Shown one piece after another: positions 1-32,857 of a DNA stretch of 64,000 nt. The DNA lies in the NCBI RefSeq assembly GCF_050920415.1, contig NZ_CP169309.1; one strand, written 5' to 3'. Position 1 is the stretch's first letter; the number at the start of each line of letters is the position of its first letter. A program made the translations under genes and the position numbers. Origin of the DNA: Escherichia coli. Its GTDB lineage: Bacteria; Pseudomonadota; Gammaproteobacteria; Enterobacterales; Enterobacteriaceae. Below the pieces are notes generated by a model that did no database searches, was not told the DNA's origin, and saw only the letters and a list, made by a program, of their open reading frames with translations.

Positions 1-395
1 CCTTAAGAATACTGCGTGAGATAATAATGAGAAGCGGAGCACTCTGAAAGGAAGATGATGCTTTTTCTATCGCGCCATCGCGAACCAGACACTGGTTTTA
101 GTCATACTGTATTTGCGGAGAAACTGTTGATAAAACATCAATAACATAATGTTCTATCATTTTTAAATGACAGATAATCTGGTGTGATATTTATATAATA
201 TTCATTCTTATATTTCTCAATCAAGGGAACATTTGGTATCCAGTGTATCATCCTCATCAACCAGATGTGTTATAAGCACTTTACCTCGTTAATTTTAATA
301 TTACGAGTTACAGGACAAAACATCACTCGCATTTAGTCCAGTAACTCGTAGTAGCCAGAGTATACATACCCATTGATAAAATGCCTGGCAATAAA

Positions 396-1253
396 TTAAC
401 CCGCTATACTCGCACTCGTCGGCCCTGTTTCAATACTACCCACAATATCAATAATGTGACCCCAGAACATATCATCATCGTTATAATATAATGAATAATC
501 TCCATTATAATCCATAGCCAACTCAACAAGATTTATTCTGCTAACAAACATATCTTCTGTAATTTCTTCATCTTCTTCATCTTGAAGCCAGTCATTGGCC
601 AATTCAGTTAATTGTTCTGCAGCATATTGGCGGAACTCCTGATCTTTTTGTTGCATATGACTACATAAAAATCGCAGATTTTCAAAAGCCTGTTGCCAGG
701 TATATCTATCATTCTTATCTACTTCCATAGATACAGAAATATTCTGATCATTCCATTTCACTTCCCCGCTAAAACAGGAGTAGTCTTTATTAAGCACGAA
801 AGTCCCCAATTGCTGATCTTCAACAACAACTGGTTTGCGATATTCTTTCTGAATATTGAGCAGTTCCTCACACTGAACATGACTTTCAAGAACCTCAAGA
901 ACATAAAACCGATTATAAAACTCGGCTAACTTTCCTTCCGGCACGGTCCTGTCAATCAAATCTCGTACTCTCAGGCGATATATACCACCAGACTGCATAT
1001 TAAACGGCCACGCACAGCCTTGAGTTTTCTCATTTTCTTCTGTTATCAACCAGTTGAGTCGTCCATCTCCAACGTGAATTTCTCCCGTAGTCAGACTCTT
1101 CCAGGCGAGTAAGTGTTCAACCGCTGTCCAGTAATTATCACCGTTACTCTTACCCGCGCCACCGCCAGTATCACTAAGAAGAACGATAATTTCTTCTTCT
1201 GTATCTTTAAATGTATGACTAAATTTTTTGTATTCTTCAGAATTTAAGTCCAT
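396..1253 (-). CDS. hypothetical acidic protein (285 aa) in an AT-rich islet downstream of hrpA
   Basis: Intact 285-codon ORF with ATG start; surrounding 1..1400 is visibly AT-rich compared with hrpA; acidic C-terminal region (DEEDEE); no family recognised from sequence alone. Confidence 0.45.
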   Translation of the reverse strand: MDLNSEEYKKFSHTFKDTEEEIIVLLSDTGGGAGKSNGDNYWTAVEHLLAWKSLTTGEIHVGDGRLNWLITEENEKTQGCAWPFNMQSGGIYRLRVRDLIDRTVPEGKLAEFYNRFYVLEVLESHVQCEELLNIQKEYRKPVVVEDQQLGTFVLNKDYSCFSGEVKWNDQNISVSMEVDKNDRYTWQQAFENLRFLCSHMQQKDQEFRQYAAEQLTELANDWLQDEEDEEITEDMFVSRINLVELAMDYNGDYSLYYNDDDMFWGHIIDIVGSIETGPTSASIAG

Positions 1254-1412
1254 TTTTGCCCCGGTGAAAAATAAATTTGATCAATAACATTGAGTGCCGC
1301 AGTAAAGAATGTGTTATCGATAATTCAAAAATGACTGCGTACGCCACAAGCCTACTCCCCACGCGACGTAAGGAGTACCGCCCTTGCTATTTTTCAGAAT
1401 TCATAAAGAAAA

Positions 1413-1442
1413 AACCCGGCGCTAAATGCTGACCGGGTTTTA
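1413..1442 (-). terminator. intrinsic terminator downstream of hrpA (GC hairpin flanked by A/T runs, possibly bidirectional)
   Basis: AAAAAACCCGG...CCGGGTTTT palindrome immediately 3' of the hrpA stop. Confidence 0.5.
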
Positions 1443-1465
1443 GATTTATCAGGTAAATAGCAGGA

Positions 1466-4400
1466 TTAACCGCTAATCTGCTCCATCGCCTGCAAAATAC
1501 GCTTATCCGAAATCGGATAAGGCGTACCAAGTTGTTGAGCGAAGTAGCTGACGCGCAGCTCTTCTATCATCCAGCGGATCTCTTTTACGTCTTCATCTTC
1601 ACGACGTGCTGGCGGCAGTTTGTTGATCCACTGCTGCCACGCCTGCTGGACATTTTCGACTTTCAGCATCTGGGCGCGGTCGCGATGTGGATCAACCGCC
1701 AGTTTTTCCAGACGTTTTTCAATCGCCTGTAAATAACGCAGCGTGTCGCCCAGCCGTTTAAAACCGTTGCCAGTGACAAAACCGCGATACACCAGCCCGC
1801 CCATCTGCGCTTTAATGTCAGAAAGCCCCAGCGCCATGGTCATATCCACCCGTCCTTTCAGGCGTTTGTTGATATTGAACACTGCCGTAAGGATTTGCTC
1901 GACCTGCTTCGCAATATCCACCACCGTGTCGTTCAGTTCAGCGCGGACTTTTTCATGAAGCGCGGCAAAGCCTTCTTCCGTCCAGACCGGGCCGCCCGCC
2001 TCATCAATCAACTTATCAACACCGCAGGAGATGCAGTCGTCAATGAGATCCAGCACTTTACCGTACGGGTTAAAGTAGAGACCCAGCTTCGCTTTGTTCG
2101 GCAGTTTCTCATGCAGATATTTAATTGGCGACGGAATGTTCAGCAACAGCAAGCGACGCAAACCACGCCACATAGCCTGCTGTTGTTCCTGCGGGTTATC
2201 AAAAAGCTTAATCGCTACGCTGTCACGCTCATCCACCAGCGCAGGCCAGGCCTTCACTTTGTAGTTGCCACGTTTCTGCTCGTAGTGATCCGGTAAATTA
2301 CCGAAGCTCCAGATATGTAACCCGCTTTGCTCAATACCATCATCGGCAACGGCGGAAAGCGTTTCCTGCACTTTGCCTTTCAGGGCGTCTTTCAGATCCT
2401 GTAATGAGCGCCCTTCTTTTAGCTTCTTATTTTTGTCGTCCACCACGCGGAAGGTGATTTTCAGGTGATCGGGCACCTGATCCCAGTGCCAGTCTTCGCG
2501 GTCAACGGTAACGCCGGTCATCCGCCGTAGCTCGCGCTCAAGGCTGTCGAGCAACGGCAGTTCCAACGGCGTGACGCGACCTAAAAACGCTTCGGCGTAG
2601 TTTGGCGCGGGTACAAAATTACGCCGTACCGGTTTCGGCAACGATTTGATTAGAGCAATCACCAGTTCACGGCGCAGGCCTGGGATCTGCCACTCAAACC
2701 CGCTTTCCTCAACCTGGTTAAGTAACGGCAGCGGAATATGCACGGTCACACCGTCAGCATCCGCCCCCGGCTCAAACTGATAGCTTAAACGCAGCTTGAG
2801 ATTGCCCTGATGCCAGAAGTTCGGGTAATCCAGCTTGCTGATTTTTTCCGCCCCTTCTTTGATCAACATGCTCTTTTCAAAGTTGAGCAAATCAGGTGTT
2901 TCGCGGCTGACTTTTTTCCACCAACTATCAAAGTGTCGTGAGGAGATCACATCGTGGCTGATGCGCTGGTCGTAAAATTCAAACAACGTTTCGTCATCCA
3001 CCAGAATATCGCGGCGACGTGATTTGTGTTCCAGTTCTTCCACTTCTGCCCGTAGTTTCAGGTTTTCACGGAAGAATGCGTGACGCGTCTGCCAGTCACC
3101 TTCCACCAGCGCGTGGCGAATAAAAAGTTCACGACACAGCGCAGGATCAATCTGGCTGTAGTTGACCTTACGCGCAGCAACAATCGGCAACCCGTAAACG
3201 GTGACTTTTTCAGTTGCCATCACCGCGCCCTGCGCCCGTTCCCAGTGCGGTTCGCTGTAGGAGCATTTAATCAAATGCTGGGCAACTGGCTCTACCCATT
3301 CCGGATCGATGCGTGCCGCAATGCGCCCCCACAGGCGGCTGGTTTCTACCAGTTCCGCCACCATTGCCCATTTCGGCGGCTTCTTGAATAAACCAGAACC
3401 GGGGAAGATGGAGAAACGCGCGTTACGTGCGCCGGTATATTCCTGTTTATCGGCATCTTTCATGCCGATATGCGAAAGCAAACCTGTCAGTAAGGCGATG
3501 TGAATTTCGCGATACTCCGCCGGTTCGCTGTTAACCGGAATGCCAAGTTCTTTCACCACCTGGCGCAACTGGGTGTAGATATCCTGCCATTCGCGCACGC
3601 GCAGATAGTTAAGGTAATCGGTACGGCACAGGCGACGGAAGGCGTTTGAAGAGAGCGCCTTTTGCTGCTCGCCGAGATAATTCCACAGATTTACAAACGC
3701 CAGGAAGTCGGATTCTTTATCGTGAAAGCGACGATGTTTTTCGTCCGATGCCTGCTGCTTGTCCATTGGCCGCTCACGCGGGTCCTGAATAGAGAGCGCG
3801 GAAGTGATAATCATCGCCTCACGCACGCAGCCATGTTTCTGCGCTTCCAGCACCATTCGCGCCAGACGAGGATCGACTGGCAGTTGCGAGAGCTGGCGAC
3901 CGAGCGGCGTCAGTTTATAGGCGCTGGCCTGTTCATCAGTGGTGATCGCGCCCAGCTCTTCGAGCAGACGCACGCCATCCTGGATATTGCGTTTATCCGG
4001 CGCTTCTACAAACGGGAACGCAGCGATATCGCCCAGCCCCAGCGCGGTCATCTGCAAAATAACCGAGGCCAGGTTGGTACGCAGAATCTCCGGATCGGTA
4101 AACTCCGGGCGCGAGAGGAAATCGTCTTCGGAATAAAGACGAATGCAGATCCCTTCTGACACACGACCACAGCGGCCTTTACGCTGATTAGCTGAAGCCT
4201 GCGAAATGGGCTCAATCGGCAGACGCTGCACTTTGGTGCGATAGCTGTAGCGGCTGATACGCGCCGTACCTGGGTCGATAACGTATTTAATCCCCGGCAC
4301 AGTCAGCGAGGTTTCCGCGACGTTAGTCGCCAGCACAATGCGCCGTCCGCTGTGCGACTGGAAGACGCGGTTCTGCTCGCTGTTCGAAAGCCGTGCATAA

Positions 4401-5368
4401 AGCGGAAGAATTTCCGTATGGCGTAAGTTCAGCTTGTTCAGCGCATCGGCGGTATCGCGAATTTCTCGCTCGCCGCTCATAAAAATCAGAATGTCGCCAG
4501 GGCTTTCCTGGCTCAGTTCATCTACGGCATCGAAAATCGCCTGCAACTGGTCGCGCTCGGTGTCATCAGCTTCTTCAACAATCGGGCGATAACGCACCTC
4601 CACCGGATAGGTACGACCGGAGACTTCGATAATCGGCGCATTATTAAAGTGGCGCGAAAAGCGTTCCGGGTCGATAGTCGCGGAAGTGATAATGATTTTT
4701 AGGTCAGGACGCCGCGGCAGTAACTCTTTCAAATAACCGAGGAGAAAATCGATATTCAGGCTACGTTCGTGCGCTTCGTCAATAATGATAGTGTCGTACT
4801 GCATCAGCAGGCGGTCTTGCTGGATCTCTGCCAGCAGGATACCGTCGGTCATCAGCTTGACCATCGTGTTATCACTGACGTGATCGCTGAAACGCACTTT
4901 ATACCCGATGCAACCGCCCGGCTCCGTTTGCAGCTCTTCCGCAATACGGTTCGCCACCGTTCGTGCCGCCAGACGACGCGGCTGGGTATGGCCGATCAGC
5001 CCTTTAATCCCGCGGCCCAGTTCCATACAGATTTTCGGTAACTGAGTCGTTTTACCGGAACCCGTTTCCCCGGCGACGATCACCACCTGGTGATCACGGA
5101 TTGCTTCGAGAATGTCCTGCTTTTTCTGACTAACCGGCAAATTGTCCGGATAAGTGATTTCCGGTCGTGCTGCTTCACGCAGCAGGACTTTCCCTGCCGC
5201 CTGGTCAATCTCTTTCGCCATCTCCTGGAAAATGGCCTGTTGTGCATCAGGATTTTTAACCTTCTTCACGCCGTGCAGACGGCGGGAAAAACGCAGTCTG
5301 TCACGCAGCATCAGCGAATCCAACCGTTGCTGCAAGGCCGTAAAGGTCAATTTTTGTTGTTCTGTCAT
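1466..5368 (-). CDS. hrpA: ATP-dependent RNA helicase HrpA (DEAH-box)
   Basis: 1300 aa ORF; Walker A GETGSGKTTQ, DEAH motif, HA2/OB C-terminal region; length matches E. coli HrpA. Confidence 0.95.
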   Translation of the reverse strand: MTEQQKLTFTALQQRLDSLMLRDRLRFSRRLHGVKKVKNPDAQQAIFQEMAKEIDQAAGKVLLREAARPEITYPDNLPVSQKKQDILEAIRDHQVVIVAGETGSGKTTQLPKICMELGRGIKGLIGHTQPRRLAARTVANRIAEELQTEPGGCIGYKVRFSDHVSDNTMVKLMTDGILLAEIQQDRLLMQYDTIIIDEAHERSLNIDFLLGYLKELLPRRPDLKIIITSATIDPERFSRHFNNAPIIEVSGRTYPVEVRYRPIVEEADDTERDQLQAIFDAVDELSQESPGDILIFMSGEREIRDTADALNKLNLRHTEILPLYARLSNSEQNRVFQSHSGRRIVLATNVAETSLTVPGIKYVIDPGTARISRYSYRTKVQRLPIEPISQASANQRKGRCGRVSEGICIRLYSEDDFLSRPEFTDPEILRTNLASVILQMTALGLGDIAAFPFVEAPDKRNIQDGVRLLEELGAITTDEQASAYKLTPLGRQLSQLPVDPRLARMVLEAQKHGCVREAMIITSALSIQDPRERPMDKQQASDEKHRRFHDKESDFLAFVNLWNYLGEQQKALSSNAFRRLCRTDYLNYLRVREWQDIYTQLRQVVKELGIPVNSEPAEYREIHIALLTGLLSHIGMKDADKQEYTGARNARFSIFPGSGLFKKPPKWAMVAELVETSRLWGRIAARIDPEWVEPVAQHLIKCSYSEPHWERAQGAVMATEKVTVYGLPIVAARKVNYSQIDPALCRELFIRHALVEGDWQTRHAFFRENLKLRAEVEELEHKSRRRDILVDDETLFEFYDQRISHDVISSRHFDSWWKKVSRETPDLLNFEKSMLIKEGAEKISKLDYPNFWHQGNLKLRLSYQFEPGADADGVTVHIPLPLLNQVEESGFEWQIPGLRRELVIALIKSLPKPVRRNFVPAPNYAEAFLGRVTPLELPLLDSLERELRRMTGVTVDREDWHWDQVPDHLKITFRVVDDKNKKLKEGRSLQDLKDALKGKVQETLSAVADDGIEQSGLHIWSFGNLPDHYEQKRGNYKVKAWPALVDERDSVAIKLFDNPQEQQQAMWRGLRRLLLLNIPSPIKYLHEKLPNKAKLGLYFNPYGKVLDLIDDCISCGVDKLIDEAGGPVWTEEGFAALHEKVRAELNDTVVDIAKQVEQILTAVFNINKRLKGRVDMTMALGLSDIKAQMGGLVYRGFVTGNGFKRLGDTLRYLQAIEKRLEKLAVDPHRDRAQMLKVENVQQAWQQWINKLPPARREDEDVKEIRWMIEELRVSYFAQQLGTPYPISDKRILQAMEQISG

Positions 5369-5559
5369 AACGTTAGTGGGCAGTTGGCTGCCTGATTAAT
5401 TTTCTTTTAAATGATAGATATAGAGTACCACATCGCGGCTTTCTATGCGTTGTTCAATAAATTCGAACATAGGCTTCGATTTATTGCGCTATCTCTGTGG
5501 CAGGATTGTGAATAAAGTGTCAACAAGCAACGGGGCATCGCCCATTCAAACATCTATAA

Positions 5560-6174
<615 letters not shown>

Positions 6175-6227
6175 CCGGACACTATTTTGATGTGGACTGT
6201 AGATATTCAGTCCACATCTCAATCCAC

Positions 6228-9291
<3,064 letters not shown>

Positions 9292-9306
9292 TTTCTCTAT
9301 TTTCCT

Positions 9307-10203
9307 TCAGTAACAGCAGTAGCGAATAAAATAAAAAAATACCGGAGCGGTGAAAATTAATGAGTCAATCCTGTCAAGGAGTCCGCCATGTCCTGGTAAT
9401 AGTTTTCCACTATCTTTAACACCAATATCTCGTTTGATGGCTGACATCACTACATCGCCGCAAAAACCACTAATACCAATTAACAAACCCGCTAATAATG
9501 CCTGTAATGTATCTAGCGGTGTCAGCAACGGTCCAATAATCAGTGACGCAATCATGGTGGTGATTACGCCGCCCATCAGACCTTCCAATGTTTTTCCCGG
9601 GCTGACTTTAGGGACCACTTTTCTTCTGCCGCAGGATTTTCCCCATAAATACTGTGCAATATCGTTTGACTCGGTTAATGCCAAAAGAAATAACACCAGT
9701 AACGCCCCGCCCTGGATATTTGTGGTTGGCAACATTAATAACCAGGCGGCATGACTCAAGGCGAAAACGGTCATTATCCAGCCACAAAAAATGGCGCTCA
9801 CGGTATGCAGAAAACCAGAGGGGTCACCCACTAAAACTCGCCAGGTGGCTAATATCAGAAACCCAGCCAAAGGTATAAATAACAGAAACAGCTCAAAGCA
9901 ATTAAAACCGATAAGCAAATAGTTAAGAGGAATACCCCAATATAACCAACGCGGAAAATGTACAGATATAAGCGTACAATATTCTTTCAATGCCAGAAAA
10001 CTTATCAGCGCAAAAAACGTCAACGTCATCCAGCGTGGACCTGAAATCACCATTGAAAAACAAATGACGATGCCCCACCAGGTACGAATACGTAATGTAA
10101 CCTCACCCCCTTTTCTCTCCGGTAACCGCCATATCAGAAAACGGTTTATCAGCGTTGCTAAAATTAACAACGCGAAAAGTGTTGCCAGAGATTTTTCCAG
10201 CAT
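9307..10203 (-). CDS. ynbB: CDP-diglyceride synthetase family membrane protein YnbB
   Basis: 298 aa polytopic ORF, CdsA-like C-terminal region; operon position with ynbA. Confidence 0.85.
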   Translation of the reverse strand: MLEKSLATLFALLILATLINRFLIWRLPERKGGEVTLRIRTWWGIVICFSMVISGPRWMTLTFFALISFLALKEYCTLISVHFPRWLYWGIPLNYLLIGFNCFELFLLFIPLAGFLILATWRVLVGDPSGFLHTVSAIFCGWIMTVFALSHAAWLLMLPTTNIQGGALLVLFLLALTESNDIAQYLWGKSCGRRKVVPKVSPGKTLEGLMGGVITTMIASLIIGPLLTPLDTLQALLAGLLIGISGFCGDVVMSAIKRDIGVKDSGKLLPGHGGLLDRIDSLIFTAPVFFYFIRYCCY

Positions 10204-10814
10204 TATCTTTCAGCACTCATAAAAAGCACACTCCGACAACGATTAATCGCAGTCCAGATAAGCAGAATTGAAGCAATACTCCATAATAAATTATTCCATT
10301 GCATCCACTGGGGATAAATGGCAATGGCCAGCCCCCACAAACCAAATATTAACGCACGATCGCTTTTGCCAAATGGACCGGCATAACTGCGAATACCGTT
10401 AATCGTCTGCGCGAGTAAACCGCAAAACTCAGTCAATATGGTGCAAAATAACATGAGTATTACGAGTGATGCGTTACTTTCCGGTAAAAATAAAAACGGT
10501 AAATAAAGCGCAATATCGGAAATAACATCGCCAGTTTCGTTCAAAATCGCCCCAAGACGTGTTTGCTGATTACACTCACGCGCCATCATGCCATCCAGCG
10601 CATTGAGTGCCATACGGACAAAAAGCACGATGGGCAATAGCAAAAAAAGGATGGGGCGTGCCACCAACATCAACAGCAATCCGGTAAGAAGAGAAAGCGC
10701 CAGTGCAGCAAGAGTGATGTGATTCGCTGTAACATGGTGCTTATAAAGCCAAAACATCGTCGGCCTTAACAGCGACTGAAAGAGCGGTTTTATCTGGTAG
10801 AGCGTCATTATCAA
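10203..10814 (-). CDS. ynbA: CDP-alcohol phosphatidyltransferase family protein YnbA
   Basis: 203 aa hydrophobic ORF with D-G-x2-A-R...D CDP-OH transferase-like motif (LDGMMARE); stop overlaps ynbB start. Confidence 0.85.
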   Translation of the reverse strand: MIMTLYQIKPLFQSLLRPTMFWLYKHHVTANHITLAALALSLLTGLLLMLVARPILFLLLPIVLFVRMALNALDGMMARECNQQTRLGAILNETGDVISDIALYLPFLFLPESNASLVILMLFCTILTEFCGLLAQTINGIRSYAGPFGKSDRALIFGLWGLAIAIYPQWMQWNNLLWSIASILLIWTAINRCRSVLFMSAER

Positions 10815-10978
10815 TCCTTGATAATTCGGTTTGCGCTATGGTGCATCAATTCCCCTTACGGAGATATCGCAACACGCCGCTTCATTAAAAATTCAGAATA
10901 TATCAAGGTATTGGGGACTCACTGCCAGGAATGATTATCCCCAATTAATCAAATGGTTAAGAAACATTACGTTGTGGA

Positions 10979-13291
10979 TCAATACAACTCATCAAGTTTT
11001 CTCATCGCTTGTTCCCGTATTGCGCGCGTCTTACCGTTAAGCGCCAGCTGGCGAACTAAATCCAGTTCAGGGTTAACAAGCTCTAACGCCAGCAAAGGAT
11101 CACGTTTCAGCCTCGCCTTTAATACATCAACTGGAAAACGGGGATTATTCATCGCCACAATCCACCACTCGGGATCAATTTCTGCCGCCAGTGCCGCAGG
11201 GGGGGTGTGGCGGTTGCTAAGTGCGCCGAACTTGAAAAATGTGAGATTGCTTTTCGCCAGTGTACTCCACCATATACGATCCGGTTGTTTTGCCAGTACA
11301 TCCAGTTGTGCTAACGCATCGGGGTCGAGTGCATAATAAACACGTAACGCTTCGTTAACCTGCGCACGGGAGCTGTTTTCCTGCCTCAGAAAAAACTTCG
11401 CCCAAATATCATTGCGTGGCGTGTTTTTCTGTAATTCTTTGAGAACAACAGCGGGTAAATTATCCCAACTAATTAATGCACTCTCTAAAAAGTCCCAGTC
11501 GTCCGAACGTATCAGAGAGGTGGCATTTAATAGCATCTGGTCATCAACTTCACCGTAGCTGATAAGCTCAGACAAAATCATATCAGCGCTGGTTTCATAT
11601 GCATCTGAATCTGCTTTGGGATTATTTTTCCGATGCGATAAAGCACGTTGCCAAATTTTTTGTTTCATCGACGTGCTCAGATACTGATTTTTCGCCAGAT
11701 TACTCCACCCCTCAGGATCGTTGAAACGTGTCAATAATCGTTGTAGAGCAGCGTCAGAGTGAATTACCTGCATATCCCGACAGCAAAAGTAGGCAGGGGA
11801 TTTTTTCTCCATCCTTTTAACAAAATTAAACTGTAAGTTATCTGGCAATGCTAAAAATAACACACGTATTAGATCATCGTCATTCTCGAATTTTTGGTAT
11901 AAATATACTGCAACTTTGTCACTCTCTTGTGGCGTCATCCGCAACAATTGACCATGGTGTTTCATCTCTGCCAGCTTTGACGCTAAGCTTGTGACAACAT
12001 CGTTTGATGAATCGTTCGCCAACTGCATTGCCTGATTGTAGGTGAGTTGTCCTCCAGCACCGACCTGACGAATAGAGGGATCATCACTGCGGATATAGCC
12101 ATCAATAATGGATTCGGGCAATAACCACGCATCTTTATAAAGCTCCTGAATGATCATATCCCAATCTCTTTTCGCCAGAGTCATGACGATATCCAGAGGG
12201 AGATTTTCACGTAGCGCAAGATTCAACGGACCGACACCATCAGGTAGATGACTCATTCGCGTCATTATTTCGACAGAGAGCGGTTCACGGTCGAGCAACC
12301 CCAGAACAACAGGCTGGTAACCCAATTGCTGATCGGTCAACTCCAGAATCTCATTGTCAGGCATATATCTCGCCATACTTGCAATCGTTTGTCCATCATT
12401 GCTATTAATAAGTTGTTTGCGTAGGTTAGCTGAAATTCCTTTAATCCTTGGGAGAGTTCGCATTATGGCAAGATCAAATGTCGCAATATCTCGTCCTTCA
12501 AATGCAGCAACGTTGCCTTCATCCAGCATTTGCAATTCCTGCACTAACTCAGGAGAAGGCTTAGGGCGAAACAGCGCTTCTTTTTTCATCAGATTACAGA
12601 TATTCCCTGCCATGCGAATATTGCTTCGCTTAAAAATTTCTTTCAGAGCATCTTCATCATTTATTAGACCCCAATAATATGCATCAGGATTTATTATCAT
12701 CAGCGCTTTTTTGACATTTTCAGTGTCATTTTTATCACTCGCACGGACCATGAATTCACTATTTGTCGAAGACGCAACAACAGGTGCAATTATGTCATTG
12801 ATAAATATCCCACGCGCATTAATACTCCCCTTAATCGTAGACGGATTATCGTAATATGAATCGATAAATACCAGTCCACTTGCATTTATCGAACCGGTAA
12901 TTAACAGTGGTGAATCTGTAACTATATTCGTTGCCGTCACGTTACCGAGAATAACCCATGGATTAGAAAGAGAGAAAGTGGAAATATTACCTTTGACTGT
13001 CAAATTGCCAAGAACAATCAATTTTTGATTACTCTCTATATTACCTTCTACCACTAAATCGCCACGATGCACTTTCCAGTCCGATGCAGATAAACCGAAG
13101 GGGACAAGATTCACGCTACTGTTGATAGCTTGTTCAACTTGCTGTTTATCTTCAGCGGTAGCCGCAGATAAAAATGGATTAATATCAACTGCATTTGCAA
13201 CACATCGAAGTTCCGCCTGTACTGGAAGACTCAGGATAAACAGGGGAAGTAAACGTATCCAGCCGCAAATCCTGGCCTTAAACATATGCAC
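10979..13291 (-). CDS. ydbD: secreted protein YdbD
   Basis: 770 aa ORF with N-terminal signal peptide; position and length match YdbD. Confidence 0.8.
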   Translation of the reverse strand: MHMFKARICGWIRLLPLFILSLPVQAELRCVANAVDINPFLSAATAEDKQQVEQAINSSVNLVPFGLSASDWKVHRGDLVVEGNIESNQKLIVLGNLTVKGNISTFSLSNPWVILGNVTATNIVTDSPLLITGSINASGLVFIDSYYDNPSTIKGSINARGIFINDIIAPVVASSTNSEFMVRASDKNDTENVKKALMIINPDAYYWGLINDEDALKEIFKRSNIRMAGNICNLMKKEALFRPKPSPELVQELQMLDEGNVAAFEGRDIATFDLAIMRTLPRIKGISANLRKQLINSNDGQTIASMARYMPDNEILELTDQQLGYQPVVLGLLDREPLSVEIMTRMSHLPDGVGPLNLALRENLPLDIVMTLAKRDWDMIIQELYKDAWLLPESIIDGYIRSDDPSIRQVGAGGQLTYNQAMQLANDSSNDVVTSLASKLAEMKHHGQLLRMTPQESDKVAVYLYQKFENDDDLIRVLFLALPDNLQFNFVKRMEKKSPAYFCCRDMQVIHSDAALQRLLTRFNDPEGWSNLAKNQYLSTSMKQKIWQRALSHRKNNPKADSDAYETSADMILSELISYGEVDDQMLLNATSLIRSDDWDFLESALISWDNLPAVVLKELQKNTPRNDIWAKFFLRQENSSRAQVNEALRVYYALDPDALAQLDVLAKQPDRIWWSTLAKSNLTFFKFGALSNRHTPPAALAAEIDPEWWIVAMNNPRFPVDVLKARLKRDPLLALELVNPELDLVRQLALNGKTRAIREQAMRKLDELY

Positions 13292-14397: not shown

Positions 14398-14416
14398 ATG
14401 CATCACATACTAAAAA

Positions 14417-17400
14417 TTAGAACGTTTTCTTGAAGTTCAGCATCACGCCTTTATCGCTGATACCATCCTCTTTCCAGTGGTAAGCATCCAGATTCAGCGA
14501 ACTTTCTTTGCTGCTGTACTTCACGCCGACGCTTGCCAGACTGTTGATGCCGCCGCCCTTTTGCCCATCATCGACATTAAAGTGCTGGCTGCCTGCGCCT
14601 GCCAGGCTTGCCGTGCGCTGGCTCTTGCTGTAGCTGAGGTTCGGCCCACCTTCCAGCGTGGCGTTCACACTCCAGCCGTCTTTCCCTGCGTAGTCCAGCT
14701 TCAGCCCGACGATGCTGTCCACCGCCGTTTCGCTGCCGCTGTTCATGCTCAGGTTAAAGTCTCCGGCATTGCGCTCCTGATAGTCGCCTTCCAGCGTGTG
14801 ACGCAGTTTCACACCCGCATATGGCGTGATTTTCAGCCCTTCGCGCGGTTCAAAGGTTTTCGCCCCTTCGCTGCGGAACTCCAGGTACTGTTGTTTCACA
14901 TTCGTGTCTGCCGTCTTACTGATGTCGCCGTAAGCCACCGAACGGCTGCTGTCCAGTTGGTGGATATCGTAACGCAGCGCGTTATTCCAGCTCATACCGT
15001 TGTCAAAGGACATCTGATGCTTCAGGCCAAAGAACTGGCTGTAGCCGCCTGTAACACCATTATCACCCGCTTTCTGCGCACCGTCGCCGTCCAGACGGGC
15101 GATACCGTACTCCAGGCTCATGGTCTGGTTTTCGCTCAGGTCGAGGGTTTTACGCAGCGCCAGCATGTCGTACTCGGTATTGTTACCCAGCTCAGCACGC
15201 GGATCGCCTTTCGCCACCACGTTAAATGCCAGAGCGTTGCCCATCTTCGGTGCTGCGTCCGCCAACATGCTGAAGCGGTTACTCAACACGCGCGCCTCAC
15301 GGAATACCGTGGTAGCCTGGCTCCCGCTGACTTGTTTTAGCGCGTTGTTCAGCTCTGCAGTGGTGCCGACGTTCAGACTGGTATACAGCTCGTTGTTGGT
15401 GTAACCCGCATCCAGCGCTTTTGCCACGTCATTCACTGAGGCATCCGTCGCCACATCGGTGTAGGCGTTTTTGCTCATGGTCACGTCAACGTTGCCGCTG
15501 GCGTCGGTACTGCCTGTCGCCTGCCAGACAACAGATGTCGAAGTGATCGCTTGCGCATCGGTCAGGTTGCTGCCTTGCACCACATCATCAAAGCTGACGG
15601 TTTTGTCCGCCGTTCCCGCCGCAAAAGCGGTGTTGATCTCCACGCCTTTCATACTGGCGTTATTGACCATCAGCTTACCGGCGCTACCGTCGGCGTTCGT
15701 CCCCACCACGTAACCATTGAGGTTGTTCATGCCATCGTTACGGCTAACGGAAGAAGAATGGCTGCCGTCGTATGGCGTAATGGTGGGTTCTTCCGGCGCG
15801 GTAAAGTCGACATAGTGTACTTCCGTACCGTCTCCCCCTTCGCCACTGCCCTCTATCGGCGTGCCAGATTGTTTAATCAATCCGGAACCATTCACGTTGT
15901 CGTCAATATAAACAGTGCCGTTGTTAACAATATGACCATTGCTCCCGAGCTTGCTGAAGGCGAAGGAGTTATTGGCGTAGATATTAATCGTACCGTTGTT
16001 TTCAACCACACCATCCGCTTTGGCGTCCGATGCTAATTGCATCCCAATCATGCCTGTTTGTGTCGTGCCTTCGCTGCCGACATTGATGGTGCCATTGTTA
16101 ACCATTTTTGCGCTGCCGTGCGCATTCATGGCGATGGTATTATTTTTATCAATATTGATAGTGCCATCGTTAATTGCCCGGCTACCGGCGTTATTATTTG
16201 ACGTCGTAACCTGGCCGTTAATCACACCTGTCGTACCGTTATACAATGTATGCCCATTACCGCCGGTAGCGATATCAGCATCCCCATTCACTGTACCCCA
16301 GTTGTTGAAATGCCCAGCCCAAAGTCCGTTATCAAGAAGATCGACAACACCACCGTCCAGGTTATTGAAGGTCGCGTTTTTATCAACCGAACCACTATGA
16401 ACCGTTCCTGCGTTATTGAATGTGGCTGCGGCAGAAAAATTCACTTTATTGACCGTTCCACCCGCTTCGTTATTCATCACGGCAGAAGCAGAGGCTCCCT
16501 TCCATGCTGTTACCGTCCCGGCGTTATAAAACGTACTGGCCCATTGTTCAACAGTGTTGATAGTGCCGGAGTTGTTGATAACAGAACCCGCAACGGTTGT
16601 ACCTACTTGCCCGGTCACTACACCTTCGTTAGTAAACACGCCGCCATCCACAGAAACGGTTTTTGTCGTGCCCTGGTTGGTGTATTCCCCACCCGTTGCA
16701 ATATCAACCTCGTTTATACTGCCCGTGGTTTCATTGACCAGATGACCAAAGTCAGCCACGGTGACAGCCCCTCCGGTTACGGTACCCGCGTTGGTTACCA
16801 GGGTTTCAGCGGTCGCTATCATATCAGTAGAACCACCGGATGAAGACAGGTTAAGCGTCTCCCCCTCGGCCGTAATGATATCGCCGTTTCTCCAGCTTAA
16901 TGAAACGAACCCATCAGTCGGGTTATAGGCGTTACTGTCCTGGCATATACCAAAAGTACAGATGGTTCCGTAATTAACGATAGTCCCGCTGCCATCGTTA
17001 TAGAATGCCTGCCCGTTTTCAGCATTGATATTGATGATGCCCGTCTGGTCATTAACTGCGGTACCGCCACTATAAACTGCCATACCAACGAGTTTATTCG
17101 CCCCCAGGCTGCCATCAAAGTTCTCATTCTTCTCGAGGTTGATGGTACCCTGATTAACCACCGTATTATCGGTACCGTATGCTGCCATCCCAGCACCTGC
17201 ATTATAGATAGTGATAGTACCTGACTGCTGGTTAAGCGCGGTAGCATTTTGCCTTGCGCCACCATAACTGTCCGTTCCTACCGCCATGCCGACACCATAA
17301 TTTTTTGCATTGCTGCTGCCGATATCGTTGCGTAAGGTGGTGGTATCGTTTTCATCTACCCAGATCGTATCCAGGGTAATCTGGCCTGCATTTGTTACAG

Positions 17401-19954
17401 TCGAATGATTAATCGCCAGCATACCGACATTACCCCGGCCATACATATCAATAACGCCATTCGCACCATTTAGCGCTGAACCATTATCCTGAGCAGTCAT
17501 GCCCGTCATACTAACAACGCCACTATTAAAAACCGTGGGATCGCTCAATGACAAAGCATTGAACATATTCAAAACGCTATACTGTTCCATCACTTTAGCC
17601 GTAATGGTACCGTTATTCACCGCCGTCCCACCTTCGGAGCTAAAGAAGGCTTTATTACCGGATTCCGGCGATACATCAATTGCGGATGAGTAATCATATT
17701 GCTCAAGTAAAACATTACCGTTATTCGTTGCAACGGAACCCGTACCCGATATATTGGTAAACCCCATATTCCAGAGCTCAACAAACCCGTTATTGATAAC
17801 TTGTGACCCTGAACTGACGCTAAGTATTTCTGATGGGTTATTGCCATAATGCGCGTAAACGTCAATATCCTTCATACTGAAGGTCGCATCCTCCGTGATT
17901 TCAAGAAAAGCATTATTGCTTACCTGAATAATATTTGCATAGCCCAGCGGAAATTGACCGCTGACTGAGGAGTCTCCTCCCAGATAAACCGACGAATGAC
18001 CATCAACCTTAATGAGCGGAATATCACCATAGCCCGTACGACTTGCGGCTGGGACTGAACCATCCGTCATAGCCGATGCTTCACCGAAAAGTTGAATACC
18101 ACCCCGTAAGGTAACGCTATTTTCATCCCCTGAAATCACCAACCCACTGATGTTTTCCTGGCTACCATTGACAGTACTATAGGTGTGATGCGCAAGTTCG
18201 CTATCAACCTTCAATGTTAACTGACCATCCAGCGTCAGGTCATTATTGTTACCCGAAACACGAATACCTACGGAAGAATCGAAAAAGTGTTCTGCTGCAT
18301 TATCAGTCGTCTGATCTTTATCCACCATAATATTACCGGTAATTTCAACTTCATTGCCATCACCGGCCACATTTACCCCTGTAGCAACACTGCCAGTCAC
18401 ATTAAGCTCATTCGTTGCCAGCGTCATGGTGTTATTATTTCCAGACACATCCAGACCGGTTGAATAATCCCCAACATCCATACGGCCAGCCAGAGAAATT
18501 TCGCCCCCATCTCCAACAACGCGAATCCCGGTACTGGCATTTCTGGCAGTGATATCCCCTACATTGATAAAGGTAGAATAATTACCCTCAATCAGAATCC
18601 CTGTCGCATTGGTCTCTGAACTGCCATTACTGACGGATATATCCCCCCTGTTAATGAACGTCGACGCATCACCACTGAGAGAAACACCCAGCGATTTTTC
18701 ATCCACCACCGTTATATTGCCTTTGTTGCTGACGACTGCGCCATTGCCCTCAACATCAATACCCCGTGCAGCATTGCTAACGTATAAATCCCCTTCCTGT
18801 TTAACCGTCGCATTATTACCAACGATTTTGCTACCCGATGAATTTTGCCCATCAACCGTCATATGGCCTTTATTATCGGTCCTGACATCATTACCGATAA
18901 TAAGGGCCCCTGTTCCACCATTATTGACGGTGGAGTCGCCAGTGTTATTTAAGATTGTACGATCGCCATTAACGATAACCGCCGTCCCAGCATCGACCAC
19001 CGTCTGACCGTTATTATTAATGGTTATATTATCGCCGGTCAGGATACCGACCACCGAATCTTCACCGACAGCCTCTGTTTTACCCTCGTTTGTCAGCGTA
19101 ATGTTGTCACCATTAATCATCATCACTGTACCGCCATTCAGGGCCGTGTTGCCGCCCTGGTCAGTGATAATTGCATCATTAACGGTAATTATTCTGCCCG
19201 TTGTTCCATCAGACACGACGCTGGCTAACTGTGTGACGTGGAGTTTACCTTCGTCATCATAGCGCCATTCCGTATCACCAGTGGTACTCACTCCACTAAA
19301 GATGGCGGTATGAGTCTCTTCATGGTTTTCCCACTCAGTCACAATGGTTTTTCGGCCATCTTTTGCCGTCAGCGTGTAGCTACCATCTTCATTTTGGGTA
19401 TAAGTGAACGTCGCCCCGCGAATCTTCAAGGTTTGCGCGTCCTTGTCCCATGTCACATTGTTATCAAAGACAACGGGTTCTGTTCTCGGGGGGTCAACAT
19501 CATCATCGCTATTGTCGGGTGGAGTAACATCACCGCCTTTATCTGGGGGGGTAACATCATCGGCGTTATCTGGCTTTACAGGTATATCTGAATCTTCATC
19601 ACTGGGAAGGGGTGGCGGTAGAGGGCCATTATCATCTGGCGGTATGGGCTGGGAAAAAGAAGAGTGAGCAGAATGATCATTGTCATGAGACAATTCAATC
19701 ACTGCGAGTGTTGTCAGTACCGCCGTGGCACCTAATGCCAGTAACGAGCTGAAACCATTATTTGTAACAACAGCACATTTTTCTGGCACTGTTTTCAACT
19801 TCGTTGACGGTCGGGCGTGCCCTTCTGACTGACATGTCATTTGAGAGCTTCTGCGCATACTGTCTGCACTCTCGCCTTCTGTTATTTCCGCCCCCCAGCT
19901 TTGGCCACTTAACGCTATAGCGATACACGCTGATAATAACGTTTTCTTTTGCAT
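14417..19954 (-). CDS. ydbA: autotransporter adhesin YdbA, apparently intact (1845 aa)
   Basis: Signal peptide (MQKKTLLSACIAIALSGQSWG), long repetitive G/T/N-rich passenger, C-terminal beta-barrel translocator ending in ...FKKTF; uninterrupted ORF, whereas K-12 ydbA is split by IS2/IS30. Confidence 0.85.
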   Translation of the reverse strand: MQKKTLLSACIAIALSGQSWGAEITEGESADSMRRSSQMTCQSEGHARPSTKLKTVPEKCAVVTNNGFSSLLALGATAVLTTLAVIELSHDNDHSAHSSFSQPIPPDDNGPLPPPLPSDEDSDIPVKPDNADDVTPPDKGGDVTPPDNSDDDVDPPRTEPVVFDNNVTWDKDAQTLKIRGATFTYTQNEDGSYTLTAKDGRKTIVTEWENHEETHTAIFSGVSTTGDTEWRYDDEGKLHVTQLASVVSDGTTGRIITVNDAIITDQGGNTALNGGTVMMINGDNITLTNEGKTEAVGEDSVVGILTGDNITINNNGQTVVDAGTAVIVNGDRTILNNTGDSTVNNGGTGALIIGNDVRTDNKGHMTVDGQNSSGSKIVGNNATVKQEGDLYVSNAARGIDVEGNGAVVSNKGNITVVDEKSLGVSLSGDASTFINRGDISVSNGSSETNATGILIEGNYSTFINVGDITARNASTGIRVVGDGGEISLAGRMDVGDYSTGLDVSGNNNTMTLATNELNVTGSVATGVNVAGDGNEVEITGNIMVDKDQTTDNAAEHFFDSSVGIRVSGNNNDLTLDGQLTLKVDSELAHHTYSTVNGSQENISGLVISGDENSVTLRGGIQLFGEASAMTDGSVPAASRTGYGDIPLIKVDGHSSVYLGGDSSVSGQFPLGYANIIQVSNNAFLEITEDATFSMKDIDVYAHYGNNPSEILSVSSGSQVINNGFVELWNMGFTNISGTGSVATNNGNVLLEQYDYSSAIDVSPESGNKAFFSSEGGTAVNNGTITAKVMEQYSVLNMFNALSLSDPTVFNSGVVSMTGMTAQDNGSALNGANGVIDMYGRGNVGMLAINHSTVTNAGQITLDTIWVDENDTTTLRNDIGSSNAKNYGVGMAVGTDSYGGARQNATALNQQSGTITIYNAGAGMAAYGTDNTVVNQGTINLEKNENFDGSLGANKLVGMAVYSGGTAVNDQTGIININAENGQAFYNDGSGTIVNYGTICTFGICQDSNAYNPTDGFVSLSWRNGDIITAEGETLNLSSSGGSTDMIATAETLVTNAGTVTGGAVTVADFGHLVNETTGSINEVDIATGGEYTNQGTTKTVSVDGGVFTNEGVVTGQVGTTVAGSVINNSGTINTVEQWASTFYNAGTVTAWKGASASAVMNNEAGGTVNKVNFSAAATFNNAGTVHSGSVDKNATFNNLDGGVVDLLDNGLWAGHFNNWGTVNGDADIATGGNGHTLYNGTTGVINGQVTTSNNNAGSRAINDGTINIDKNNTIAMNAHGSAKMVNNGTINVGSEGTTQTGMIGMQLASDAKADGVVENNGTINIYANNSFAFSKLGSNGHIVNNGTVYIDDNVNGSGLIKQSGTPIEGSGEGGDGTEVHYVDFTAPEEPTITPYDGSHSSSVSRNDGMNNLNGYVVGTNADGSAGKLMVNNASMKGVEINTAFAAGTADKTVSFDDVVQGSNLTDAQAITSTSVVWQATGSTDASGNVDVTMSKNAYTDVATDASVNDVAKALDAGYTNNELYTSLNVGTTAELNNALKQVSGSQATTVFREARVLSNRFSMLADAAPKMGNALAFNVVAKGDPRAELGNNTEYDMLALRKTLDLSENQTMSLEYGIARLDGDGAQKAGDNGVTGGYSQFFGLKHQMSFDNGMSWNNALRYDIHQLDSSRSVAYGDISKTADTNVKQQYLEFRSEGAKTFEPREGLKITPYAGVKLRHTLEGDYQERNAGDFNLSMNSGSETAVDSIVGLKLDYAGKDGWSVNATLEGGPNLSYSKSQRTASLAGAGSQHFNVDDGQKGGGINSLASVGVKYSSKESSLNLDAYHWKEDGISDKGVMLNFKKTF

Positions 19955-20600
19955 GAGAAATCCTTTTCAATGAATGACATTTCAAATAATAAAATATGAG
20001 TAACAGATAAGAAATAGCCACAGGCTGTGTCATGATTTAATGTCTGCTCTTGAAATTTTATTTAGCAATCCCAGAATATTCAACTTAATTAGTATTTCGA
20101 AACCTCAATGTAGACACATAAAAAACAAATTATTCGATTACTTAGGCTATTTGTTGCATTAATACACATCCTCTAACAATAATCAGACAAAAAGCAATGT
20201 CAGCGTCAAATTGGGTAGCTGATTCATATTACTGATCACTCCGTAAATTCATTCATCGTGAAAATATTAACATTTCAACCATGTTCCATTTAATCAACCC
20301 ACTGAAAATCTGGAGGTTATCTACTGCGGTTTGTTGTTGACTGCCCCTGACAGGTTTACCTGGCGTTGACAGAAGATGAGGCTTGCAAAATGCTAAAAAC
20401 AATGTGGTGTTACAAGCAATCCCATAAACCTCGTAACTTCACTTAAATGAGCGATGCCGTCCATATTTGGGTTGACTATAAAAACCCTTAATATTGAGGT
20501 TGATGATGATATTCATGATGGCGTTGGAAAAATAGGACACCCATAAAATATCTATACAGCCTTTAAATTAAATCATTGAAATATCGCTGTTGCATAGTGC

Positions 20601-20927
20601 TTATTTTTGCAACCATTTCCCGTTAATTCCCTGCACATATTCCCCCCGTTTGGCCCGAGCTACAAGCCTTTGTCCGGCAAGCTTCGCGATATCATCTACC
20701 GATACATTATTTTGCTTTGCCAGTTGTTGATAACTCACTTTACGTGCGTCATTAATCTCGGTTACTAATTTCTCTGTTTCAGCATCCGTTTTCAACGCAA
20801 CCAAATAACCGTTAAATGTTTCACCTACCCGCCCCTGGATTCTGGCCTCGTCCAGTGTTAATGCCACTACATTGCTGCTTACCAGTCCAACAAGAAACGC
20901 ACAAAGAAGTAATGTTTTCTTCATCAT
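20601..20927 (-). CDS. ydbL: periplasmic protein YdbL (DUF1318)
   Basis: 108 aa from MMKKTLLLCAF signal peptide; track ORF extends further upstream but overlaps ynbE. Confidence 0.85.
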   Translation of the reverse strand: MMKKTLLLCAFLVGLVSSNVVALTLDEARIQGRVGETFNGYLVALKTDAETEKLVTEINDARKVSYQQLAKQNNVSVDDIAKLAGQRLVARAKRGEYVQGINGKWLQK

Positions 20928-20931
20928 CGCC

Positions 20932-21117
20932 TCAGAAAAGATCGCTACGGGTTTTGAGTAAATCTTCGACATCTTTGTCTGCCTTAATGATGATCTCATG
21001 CTCAATTTTAACGTTCATATTGATAGTGATCGGTTCCTTAGGTGCAGCGACTTCAATGCGAGGCGTACAGCCAACCAGCATAAAAGATGACGTCAACGCA
21101 GCCAGTAAAATTTTCAT
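20932..21117 (-). CDS. ynbE: lipoprotein YnbE
   Basis: 61 aa ORF with lipobox (MLVGC); between ydbH and ydbL as in E. coli. Confidence 0.85.
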   Translation of the reverse strand: MKILLAALTSSFMLVGCTPRIEVAAPKEPITINMNVKIEHEIIIKADKDVEDLLKTRSDLF

Positions 21118-29909: not shown

Positions 29910-31043
29910 ATGAAAAGCAAAGTACTGGCACTTTTAATTCCTGCCCTGCTCGCCGCAGGTGCTGCACATGCAGCCGAAGTTTATAATAAAGACGGCAATA
30001 AATTAGATCTGTATGGCAAAGTTGATGGCCTGCATTATTTTTCTGATAATTCAGCGAAAGATGGCGACCAGAGCTATGCGCGTCTGGGTTTTAAAGGCGA
30101 AACCCAAATTAACGATCAACTTACTGGCTACGGTCAATGGGAATACAATATTCAGGCAAACAACACTGAATCTTCAAAAAACCAGTCATGGACCCGTCTG
30201 GCATTTGCCGGACTGAAATTTGCAGATTACGGTTCTTTCGATTACGGACGTAATTATGGCGTACTGTACGACATCGAAGGCTGGACCGATATGCTGCCTG
30301 AATTTGGCGGTGACTCTTATACCAATGCAGACAACTTTATGACTGGTCGTGCCAATGGCGTCGCGACTTATCGTAACACTGATTTCTTCGGTCTGGTAAA
30401 TGGTCTGAACTTCGCGGTGCAGTATCAAGGTAACAACGAAGGAGCCAGTAATGGTCAGGAAGGCACCAACAACGGACGTGATGTTCGCCATGAAAACGGT
30501 GACGGCTGGGGTCTTTCCACAACATATGATTTAGGTATGGGCTTTAGCGCTGGTGCGGCATACACCTCTTCTGACCGCACCAATGACCAGGTTAACCATA
30601 CTGCGGCTGGTGGTGATAAAGCAGACGCGTGGACTGCTGGGCTAAAATACGATGCTAATAATATTTACCTGGCAACCATGTATTCAGAAACGCGTAATAT
30701 GACCCCGTTTGGCGACAGCGATTATGCTGTTGCAAACAAAACCCAGAACTTTGAAGTCACTGCACAGTACCAGTTTGATTTTGGTCTGCGTCCGGCAGTC
30801 TCTTTCCTGATGTCTAAAGGCCGTGACCTGCACGCTGCCGGTGGTGCAGACAACCCGGCAGGTGTTGATGATAAAGATCTGGTAAAATACGCCGATGTTG
30901 GCGCGACTTACTATTTCAATAAAAATATGTCCACCTACGTTGACTATAAAATCAACCTGTTGGATGAAGATGACAGCTTCTACGCTGCCAACGGCATCTC
31001 TACCGATGATATTGTCGCTTTAGGTCTGGTTTATCAGTTCTAA
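29910..31043 (+). CDS. ompN: outer membrane porin OmpN
   Basis: 377 aa ORF; signal peptide, general-porin family with C-terminal ...LVYQF. Confidence 0.92.
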
Positions 31044-31051
31044 ATCCTCCT

Positions 31052-31076
31052 GCCCGCTGTTATGGCGGGCTTTTTC
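31052..31076 (+). terminator. intrinsic terminator after ompN
   Basis: GCCCGC...GCGGGC hairpin followed by TTTTT. Confidence 0.7.
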
Positions 31077-31102
31077 TGCTTATTCTTCCTCCTTTGATCT
31101 AA

Positions 31103-31618
<516 letters not shown>

Positions 31619-31625
31619 CACTAAC

Positions 31626-31650
31626 GCCCGCACATTGCTGCGGGCTTTTT
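31626..31650 (+). terminator. intrinsic terminator after uspF
   Basis: GCCCGC-loop-GCGGGC followed by TTTTT. Confidence 0.7.
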
Positions 31651-31793
31651 GATTCATTTCGCAAATGTGCTGACATTTTCCCCTCTAATCCGTACCATAC
31701 ACGCCACAGTTTTTATATCAGATTTCTTATGCTGGGCGTTCCGGCATGACGCATACTCTTCTGATGCCATATAACGAATTGAGTCGCTTTTAA

Positions 31794-32729
31794 ATGTCGC
31801 AAAATCAAGAAATTAGTAAGAAAGAACAATACAACCTGAACAAATTACAAAAACGTCTGCGTCGTAACGTGGGCGAAGCCATTGCTGACTTCAATATGAT
31901 TGAAGAAGGCGATCGCATCATGGTTTGCCTCTCCGGGGGTAAAGACAGCTATACCATGCTGGAGATTCTGCGCAATTTGCAGCAAAGCGCGCCAATCAAT
32001 TTTTCGCTGGTGGCTGTTAACCTCGATCAAAAGCAACCGGGCTTCCCGGAACACGTTCTGCCCGAGTATCTTGAAAAGCTGGGCATTGAGTACAAGATTG
32101 TGGAAGAGAACACTTACGGTATCGTGAAAGAGAAGATTCCGGAGGGCAAAACCACTTGCTCACTGTGTTCTCGTCTTCGTCGCGGAATTCTTTACCGTAC
32201 CGCAACGGAACTGGGAGCGACGAAGATCGCGCTGGGTCACCATCGTGACGATATCCTGCAAACGTTGTTCTTAAATATGTTCTACGGCGGCAAGATGAAA
32301 GGTATGCCTCCGAAACTGATGAGCGATGATGGCAAACATATTGTGATTCGTCCGCTGGCCTACTGCCGCGAGAAAGATATTCAGCGATTTGCCGATGCAA
32401 AAGCGTTCCCGATTATTCCGTGCAACCTGTGCGGTTCACAGCCTAACCTGCAACGTCAGGTGATTGCTGACATGTTGCGTGACTGGGATAAACGTTATCC
32501 GGGGCGTATCGAGACGATGTTCAGCGCGATGCAGAATGTGGTGCCGTCGCATCTGTGCGATACCAACCTGTTCGATTTCAAAGGCATTACCCACGGTTCT
32601 GAAGTGGTTAACGGGGGTGATCTGGCGTTTGATCGCGAAGAGATCCCTCTACAACCGGCGGGTTGGCAGCCTGAAGAAGATGAAAATCAGTTGGATGAGT
32701 TACGACTGAATGTGGTTGAAGTGAAATAA
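31794..32729 (+). CDS. ttcA: tRNA 2-thiocytidine(32) synthetase TtcA
   Basis: 311 aa ORF; PP-loop SGGKDS and CxxC motifs; full length. Confidence 0.92.
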
Positions 32730-32739
32730 CCCGGATAGC

Positions 32740-32810
32740 GCCCGATGCGCAAGCTTATCGGGCTACTCTTATGGAGGCCGGATAAGACGCGGCCAGCGTC
32801 GCATCCGGCA
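32740..32810. repeat. REP-like extragenic palindromes between convergent ttcA and dbpA
   Basis: CCCGATGCGCAAGCTTATCGGG followed by GCCGGATAAGACGCGGCCAGCGTCGCATCCGGC, typical REP unit sequence. Confidence 0.6.
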
Positions 32811-32857
32811 ATCCCGAAGAAGATGTTTACTCTTGCACCCTGCGATTCAACATTTCA

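Follow-up and report, generated by a model that had tools for sequence, protein, structure and literature searches.

The window analysed here, a 64,000-nucleotide stretch of Escherichia coli DNA (RefSeq assembly GCF_050920415.1, contig NZ_CP169309.1), begins in the gap between ydcF and hrpA with an AT-rich islet whose single intact gene codes for an acidic protein of 285 amino acids (aa) with the domain architecture DUF7021+DUF2262. The hrpA-ydcF gap is a polymorphic site of which the DUF2262 gene is one allele, and this allele arrived by homologous recombination rather than on a mobile element. As for its function, we tentatively favour the reading that the product is a cytoplasmic, stand-alone (orphan) immunity-type protein, housed in a small variable immunity site and imported together with DNA of the Escherichia fergusonii type.

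The islet gene encodes a two-domain protein of a catalogued family

By its domain matches, the protein is a plain member of a family that Pfam already catalogues. Specifically, DUF7021 (PF22886) covers residues 8-138 (E 2.7e-31, 108.4 bits against a cut-off of 27, model positions 2-123 of 123) and DUF2262 (PF10020) covers residues 146-283 (E 1.3e-44, 152.5 bits against a cut-off of 29.8, model positions 1-142 of 142), and RefSeq lists the protein as WP_000365422.1 under the name 'DUF2262 domain-containing protein'. The first-pass annotation, a reading of the nucleotide letters without database searches, had presented the product as an orphan of unrecognised family, a description that these matches overturn. 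Its remarks on composition are borne out: the protein contains both the N-terminal segment IIVLLSDTGGGAGKSNGDNYW and the acidic run DWLQDEEDEEITED, and has an isoelectric point (pI) of 4.38, with 54 Asp and Glu residues versus 24 Lys and Arg. Its remark that the product does not resemble YdcF is borne out as well, as there is no DUF218 match. Taken separately, the OB-like N-terminal domain has a pI of 5.0 and the C-terminal domain, which bears a loop rich in Asp and Glu and variable in length among family members, a pI of 4.05. No signal peptide or transmembrane-like N-terminus was found in the 285 residues.

The AlphaFold2 model of the protein has a pLDDT of 93 and a pTM of 0.83. The DUF2262 domain is predicted to consist of four strands, a long helical hairpin with the acidic loop, and four further strands; it carries the motif YYNDDDMFWGH and closes with an invariant Gly. 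The residues that are invariant in 47 sequences (W68, L215, A219, F236, D259, F263, H266 and G285) are all kept here, as is the ...IAG end typical of the family, and the conserved columns are W68, R97, D204, R208, N220, W222, R239, D259, D261, F263, H266 and the final Gly.

When searched with a profile of the C-terminal domain, the family amounts to 3054 clusters (50% identity) at E <=1e-3, of which 1740 reach E <=1e-10. The DUF2262 domain is nearly always C-terminal, with DUF7021 before it; rarely, it is fused to DUF5713, which also occurs as the product of a neighbouring gene. Outside Escherichia the homologs range from 48% identity downwards and come from Bacteroidota, Clostridia, Actinomyces, Bacilli, Fusobacterium and a few metagenome-assembled genomes of other groups. 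The distribution is patchy, Proteobacteria included, with several copies in some genomes; among gut Clostridia, oral Actinomyces and Bacteroidales the family is common. NCBIfam returned sub-threshold noise only, and sequence searches of the PDB, whether run with this protein alone or with a profile of the family, gave only chance matches to acyl carrier protein and to RdgC-like stretches. The searchable literature mentions neither DUF2262 nor DUF7021, and likewise no hotspot between hrpA and ydcF.

The DUF2262 gene is real and under purifying selection. The Pfam E-values, the ratio of nonsynonymous to synonymous substitutions (dN/dS) of 0.12-0.33 among the E. coli alleles, and hundreds of full-length homologs mark the open reading frame (ORF) as a genuine gene and not a chance one, which disposes of the possibility, raised in the first-pass annotation, of a spurious and unconserved frame. 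The dN/dS of hrpA is 0.02. Each of the four E. coli carriers has the frame unbroken, as do many E. fergusonii genomes, and the exact sequence of WP_000365422.1 is found on 252 public contigs under the label 'MULTISPECIES [Escherichia]'. Positive selection between alleles was considered and dropped, pN/pS lying below 0.5 in every segment.

The islet and its flanks

The features at the left end of the window, with their strand where one applies, are as follows.

1..55, no strand: conserved region upstream of ydcF, left flank of the islet (96% identity to the K-12 spacer)
56..1391, no strand: the islet, whose 1336 bp stand where K-12 has a 128-bp piece of its hrpA-ydcF spacer (window 1-1700 aligned to that spacer by BLAST; GC profile)
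98..163, minus strand: remnant of a 125-aa hypothetical gene, the last one in the four-gene island of the EDL933 type, reduced to its final 22 codons (RefSeq pseudogene note 'missing N-terminus')
299..353, minus strand: inverted repeat with 22-nt arms, directly after the DUF2262 stop codon (inverted-repeat search and RNA fold)
396..1253, minus strand: gene for the 285-aa DUF7021+DUF2262 protein, WP_000365422.1 (ORF, Pfam, dN/dS, public copies, AlphaFold2 model)
405..818, minus strand: C-terminal domain DUF2262, residues 146-283
840..1232, minus strand: N-terminal domain DUF7021, residues 8-138, a predicted OB-fold-like beta barrel
1403..1449, minus strand: intrinsic hrpA terminator, made up of a hairpin and then UUUUUUCUUU (U-tract) (inverted repeat; RNA fold of -18.2 kcal/mol, z = -2.6)
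1466..5368, minus strand: hrpA, an allele of the E. fergusonii type and part of the recombination tract (96-99.6% to the E. fergusonii loci L112 and L114 versus 85-97% to K-12)

In windows of 300 bases the GC content across positions 1-1500 is 0.33-0.45, versus 0.49-0.61 in hrpA; the DUF2262 gene has a GC content of 0.39 and a third-position GC content (GC3) of 0.33, and hrpA has 0.54 and 0.61, respectively. The marked AT-richness that the first-pass annotation had ascribed to the first 1.4 kb is thus confirmed, and its extent is revised: the islet proper runs from about 56 to 1391, and the outer parts of the proposed interval 1..1465 belong to the flanks conserved with K-12 (window 1-55 and 1392-1700). 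The ORF, as had been stated, is intact and lies downstream of the hrpA terminator hairpin; it begins with ATG. The terminator is kept in K-12, EDL933, FCI48 and every other allele examined. The suggestion that the islet had replaced ydcF does not hold. In E. coli MFDS1022581, to which window 1-1600 is 100% identical, ydcF is complete; its start codon stands 19 bp to the left of window position 1 (annotated at L001 14182-14982, ending at window -18), and aldA comes after it.

The inverted repeat beyond the stop codon is probably a 3' stem-loop or terminator of the DUF2262 gene: the fold of positions 270-400 on the minus strand reaches -35.5 kcal/mol (z = -3.5), a stability matched by none of 200 shuffles, and the repeat has no clear U-tract. 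Rfam gave, for window 1-1600, one chance match to a eukaryotic small Cajal body-specific RNA, far under threshold. A site-specifically inserted genomic island was rejected: the annotation around the islet holds no integrase or transposase, a tRNA scan found no tRNA at the islet, and a search of the islet edges for flanking direct repeats, cassette-type repeats and target-site duplications returned only short two-copy, chance-like matches.

The hrpA-ydcF gap holds different cargo in different lineages

The site was surveyed in 5426 complete E. coli genomes, in line with the comparison of the hrpA-ydcF-aldA region that the first-pass annotation had proposed, and it proved polymorphic. The DUF2262 gene is present in four of them, each time between hrpA and ydcF, and is lacking in the other 5422 and in K-12. 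Four small hypothetical genes (125-143 aa, one copy per genome) occupy the gap in 583 genomes, including O157:H7 EDL933 (L006 4041-5729), and in 186 genomes (e.g. FCI48, L002 12370-13160) it holds, once per genome, a SUKH (SMI1/KNR4) gene with a 99-aa gene on the opposite strand. The remaining genomes, about 4650, have none of the three. Neither the four small proteins of EDL933 nor the 99-aa protein of FCI48 belongs to a Pfam, NCBIfam or PADLOC family.

Some E. coli carry, at the same site, a DUF2262 allele of 82% identity followed by the four small genes. The islet of this strain is a cut-down form of that longer island, since window 98-163 keeps only the last 22 codons of the fourth small gene; window 1-163 matches the 3' end of the 125-aa gene in EDL933 and in locus L020 at 96%. 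The order hrpA-DUF2262-ydcF was found in all four E. fergusonii loci examined, and E. albertii has a homolog of 52% identity immediately following hrpA, so that a DUF2262 gene follows hrpA in three Escherichia species. In one of the E. fergusonii loci (L022, CP040805.1, ~6822-7865) the gene is split into parts of 273 and 63 aa by an insertion of ~1.2 kb, probably an insertion sequence (IS) element, at a point that corresponds to window 541-544.

The allele entered with a tract of E. fergusonii-type DNA

A sliding comparison places the islet at the left edge of an interspecies tract of the E. fergusonii type, at least 10 kb long, that was exchanged by homologous recombination. Specifically, from about window position 1 to at least 10,400, through the islet, hrpA, azoR, ynbD, ynbC, ynbB and ynbA, the identity is 96-99.8% to E. 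fergusonii and 85-97% to K-12, while to the left of the window (ydcF, aldA, gapC, cybB) it is 91-98% to K-12 and 66-86% to E. fergusonii. The tract length is a lower bound, as the E. fergusonii loci compared end at about window 10,400. It is this E. fergusonii-like identity, together with a layout that is fixed in the E. fergusonii loci examined, that argues for arrival by homologous recombination. We infer a transfer from E. fergusonii into E. coli, because the layout is common in the former and confined to 4 of 5426 genomes in the latter. Over window 501-1400, the body of the gene, the difference from the E. fergusonii alleles compared is 7-10%, while the 3' end of the gene is 98-99% identical to them; the alleles are therefore mosaic. 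The horizontal acquisition put forward in the first-pass annotation thus survives in part: the foreign-looking composition and the absence from K-12 and from nearly all E. coli agree with it, and the self-contained insertion of a single gene gives way to an islet at the edge of a larger tract.

Homolog neighbourhoods and the immunity reading

The genes around the homologs were compared in 83 loci whose neighbours could be used; ORFs were called there and the genes within three positions clustered. In these counts, which were made without a rigorous background control, four neighbour clusters recur, and 29 of the 83 loci hold one or more of them within three genes: DUF6138 (17 loci), Imm17 (13), a zinc-ribbon protein of 371-405 aa that is DUF1963-like in look (11), and an ankyrin-repeat protein (9). 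Moreover, among 216 de-duplicated genes within two positions, Pfam recognises SUKH-3, SuFu, Imm32, DUF1963, DUF4241, DUF4240, DUF4274, DUF1877 and DUF5713, and single loci have SuFu directly downstream (L110), DUF1963 directly upstream (L008) or DUF1877 upstream.

Heterogeneous polyimmunity loci have been defined by mixtures of immunity families that include Imm17, Imm-ank, SuFu and SUKH (Zhang et al. 2012, PMC3482391), where Imm17 itself was assigned from context alone; DUF2262 is not named in the text or in one supplementary file of that study. The adjoining Imm17, SUKH-3, SuFu, Imm32, ankyrin and DUF1963 genes make up mixtures like those of the polyimmunity loci, and this likeness is the first support for an immunity role. 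A further one is the alternative occupant of the same E. coli site, a gene of SUKH, the commonest immunity superfamily. Moreover, the patchy distribution and the multiple copies point in the same direction, and the fusion to DUF5713 follows the way in which polyimmunity proteins are put together. The first-pass annotation had grouped immunity, antitoxin and defence as likely functions of such an islet; the immunity type is the one best supported by the homolog neighbourhoods, and defence finds no counterpart among the PADLOC models (see below).

On this basis, the acidic protein, with its OB-like DUF7021 barrel followed by the DUF2262 domain, would act in the cytoplasm, where it would bind and neutralise a toxin domain sent in by a competitor bacterium; the toxin could plausibly be basic and directed at nucleic acids. 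The hrpA-ydcF gap is a small variable site at which Escherichia lineages carry differing cargo (the DUF2262 gene, the SUKH/SMI1-KNR4 cassette or the four small genes), and the DUF2262 allele entered this strain along with hrpA and at least 10 kb by recombination with E. fergusonii-type DNA. More broadly, it is possible, if doubtful, that DUF7021+DUF2262 proteins form a large and so far unrecognised family of stand-alone interbacterial immunity proteins, or of DNA-mimic inhibitors of nucleic-acid-targeting enzymes; in that case the gap would be a polyimmunity site in miniature, with alleles that pass from species to species through homologous recombination.

Several observations weigh against the immunity role. 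In a Pfam scan at E <=1 the protein matched DUF2262 and DUF7021 alone, with no Imm, SUKH or SuFu model. No toxin gene adjoins the homologs in the approximately 90 loci examined (none recurrent in the 83, none in the loci viewed singly), no fusion of a family member to a toxin domain was found, and no toxin-domain gene is annotated beside the DUF2262 gene of the window. The background of the neighbour counts is uncontrolled, as said above; the genes three to six positions away are an ordinary mixture with few immunity-type families among the matches listed, and many homolog loci lack immunity-type neighbours and have housekeeping or conjugative-element genes instead. The gene bears no sign of diversifying selection, as no segment exceeds a pN/pS of 0.5. 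Different phyla keep the same polar motif (D204, R208, N220, W222, D259, D261, H266 and the C-terminal Gly), a pattern more in keeping with a fixed ligand or an enzyme than with co-evolution alongside varied toxins. Lastly, a promoter scan found no consensus sigma-70 promoter between the hrpA terminator and the DUF2262 start codon.

Two of the neighbourhoods are of interest in their own right. In Clostridia, the family that most often stands directly upstream of DUF2262 is DUF6138 (436-510 aa), at position -1 in 13 of its 17 loci (the list comprises L027, L029, L031, L034, L068, L070, L074-L076, L081-L083, L087, L095, L099 and L100), and the two proteins may be a functional pair. On the metagenome contigs L115/L116, of the Enterocloster type (3862-12705), the commonest gut homolog is surrounded by more than 20 co-directional genes of 70-280 aa, with almost no Pfam matches except DUF3781, YfbO and a weak PC4. 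This array could be either a very large locus of the polyimmunity type or an accessory region of a mobile element; element cargo is an equally possible reading, and to that extent the array also counts against an immunity role.

Alternative explanations

Mobile-element cargo is the likeliest of the alternatives, though we consider it unlikely. The acidic OB-like protein would in this case guard incoming DNA, as an anti-defence factor or DNA mimic that inhibits, for example, a restriction or DNA-binding defence protein, and the Escherichia copy would be a domesticated or stranded relic. Such a role would suit the Clostridia, where the gene lies within conjugative or mobilisable elements between TraG/Maff2 and relaxase genes, as well as the ParB neighbour in three loci, the three Bacillus matches on conjugative megaplasmids, the array of small co-directional genes around the commonest gut homolog, and the low pI of the C-terminal domain with its variable D/E-rich loop. 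However, the protein matches none of 50,697 records of a phage database and no PHROGs family with a meaningful score, the Escherichia gene sits between core genes with no mobile-element genes near, the closest frequent neighbours are immunity-type families rather than transfer genes, and the fold similarities are under any level that would indicate homology. A nucleic-acid-binding or small enzymatic protein of the housekeeping type, whose OB-like barrel would bind single-stranded DNA (ssDNA) or RNA and whose adjacency to hrpA would reflect its function, is rather improbable: the Asp/His polar motif, strongly conserved across phyla, and the position after hrpA in three Escherichia species speak for it, but the strong acidity, which extends to the OB-like domain, disfavours nucleic-acid binding, and the absence of the gene from 99.9% of complete E. 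coli genomes means that it is not part of HrpA function. A functional linkage to hrpA was dropped, as in the loci examined the gene is never beside hrpA outside Escherichia and the hrpA terminator stands between the two genes.

A single-gene anti-phage defence protein, or a part of an undescribed defence system, would fit an AT-rich single gene of strain-variable presence, and some homologs adjoin NACHT and KAP NTPases, GmrSD or, in L015, a CRISPR-Cas locus of type I-C. Among the neighbours, though, defence genes do not recur, and the protein matches none of 5027 PADLOC models at E <=1; it has no nuclease, NTPase or other effector-like domain, and 285 aa without an enzymatic signature would be unusual for a sensor and effector in one, all of which makes a defence role quite improbable. 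Highly improbable is a non-functional relic or spurious ORF. The lack of a consensus promoter upstream, the visible erosion of the island in this strain and the insertion that splits the gene in one E. fergusonii strain would accord with decay, whereas the four E. coli carriers and many E. fergusonii genomes have an intact frame, dN/dS is 0.12-0.33, every family-invariant residue is kept and the predicted fold is of high confidence.

Other features of the window

To the right of position 10,400, the window differs from K-12 at further points. At 14,400-20,000 (L117 1-5363) there is an intact autotransporter gene of 5.5 kb where K-12 has ydbA broken by IS2 and IS30. At ~20,000-21,000, between the autotransporter and ydbL, this strain lacks the paa operon, tynA and the feaRB cluster of K-12. 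In ~31,000-36,000, near where K-12 would be expected to have its Rac prophage, ompN is directly followed by uspF and ttcA, and the annotation shows no prophage genes. To the right of window 31,000 there is no match to the K-12 stretch compared (1436000-1484000), which stops inside ompN. Lastly, abgT (~41,970-43,480) and mppA (47,690-49,300) are frameshifted pseudogenes according to RefSeq.

Significance and comparison with known systems

The practical weight of the gene for E. coli biology is small, given 4 carriers in 5426 genomes and a DUF annotation that already exists. The locus is nevertheless a clean, small case of accessory cargo that crosses Escherichia species through flanking homologous recombination, without a mobile element. 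Were the immunity reading true, it would give a testable function to a widespread DUF that abounds in bacteria of the human gut and mouth, and the orphan immunity genes by which bacterial competition is shaped would gain one more family.

Compared with the Pfam DUF2262+DUF7021 family, which has no described function or solved structure, the window protein is alike in its full-length match, its two-domain architecture and its invariant residues, and no difference was seen. YdcF (DUF218) is of an unrelated family and has only the place downstream of hrpA in common with it. The DUF7021 domain shares 6-12% sequence identity with the OB-fold ssDNA-binding domains of SSB, RPA and PriB, with no Pfam or PDB sequence match, and so low a likeness is no evidence of homology or of DNA binding; unlike those folds, it has an acidic rather than basic surface, and it is always joined to DUF2262.

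With regard to interbacterial competition, the DUF2262 gene differs from the cognate pairs of polymorphic toxins (PMC3482391) in that it is not directly downstream of a toxin-domain gene. It differs from the proteins of polyimmunity loci in matching no curated immunity family and in having no cognate toxin in the loci examined, and the Escherichia site, with one to five genes, is not an extended array and has no adjacent recombinase. On the other hand, DUF2262 homologs often stand beside Imm17, SUKH-3, SuFu, Imm32 and ankyrin genes, as in the polyimmunity loci, and the Bacteroidales AID clusters (bioRxiv 10.1101/471110) are likewise comparable. With the orphan and polyimmunity proteins of the Imm17, SUKH/SMI1-KNR4, SuFu and Imm-ank families (PMC3482391), DUF2262 shares the traits of being small, cytoplasmic, sporadic and strain-variable.

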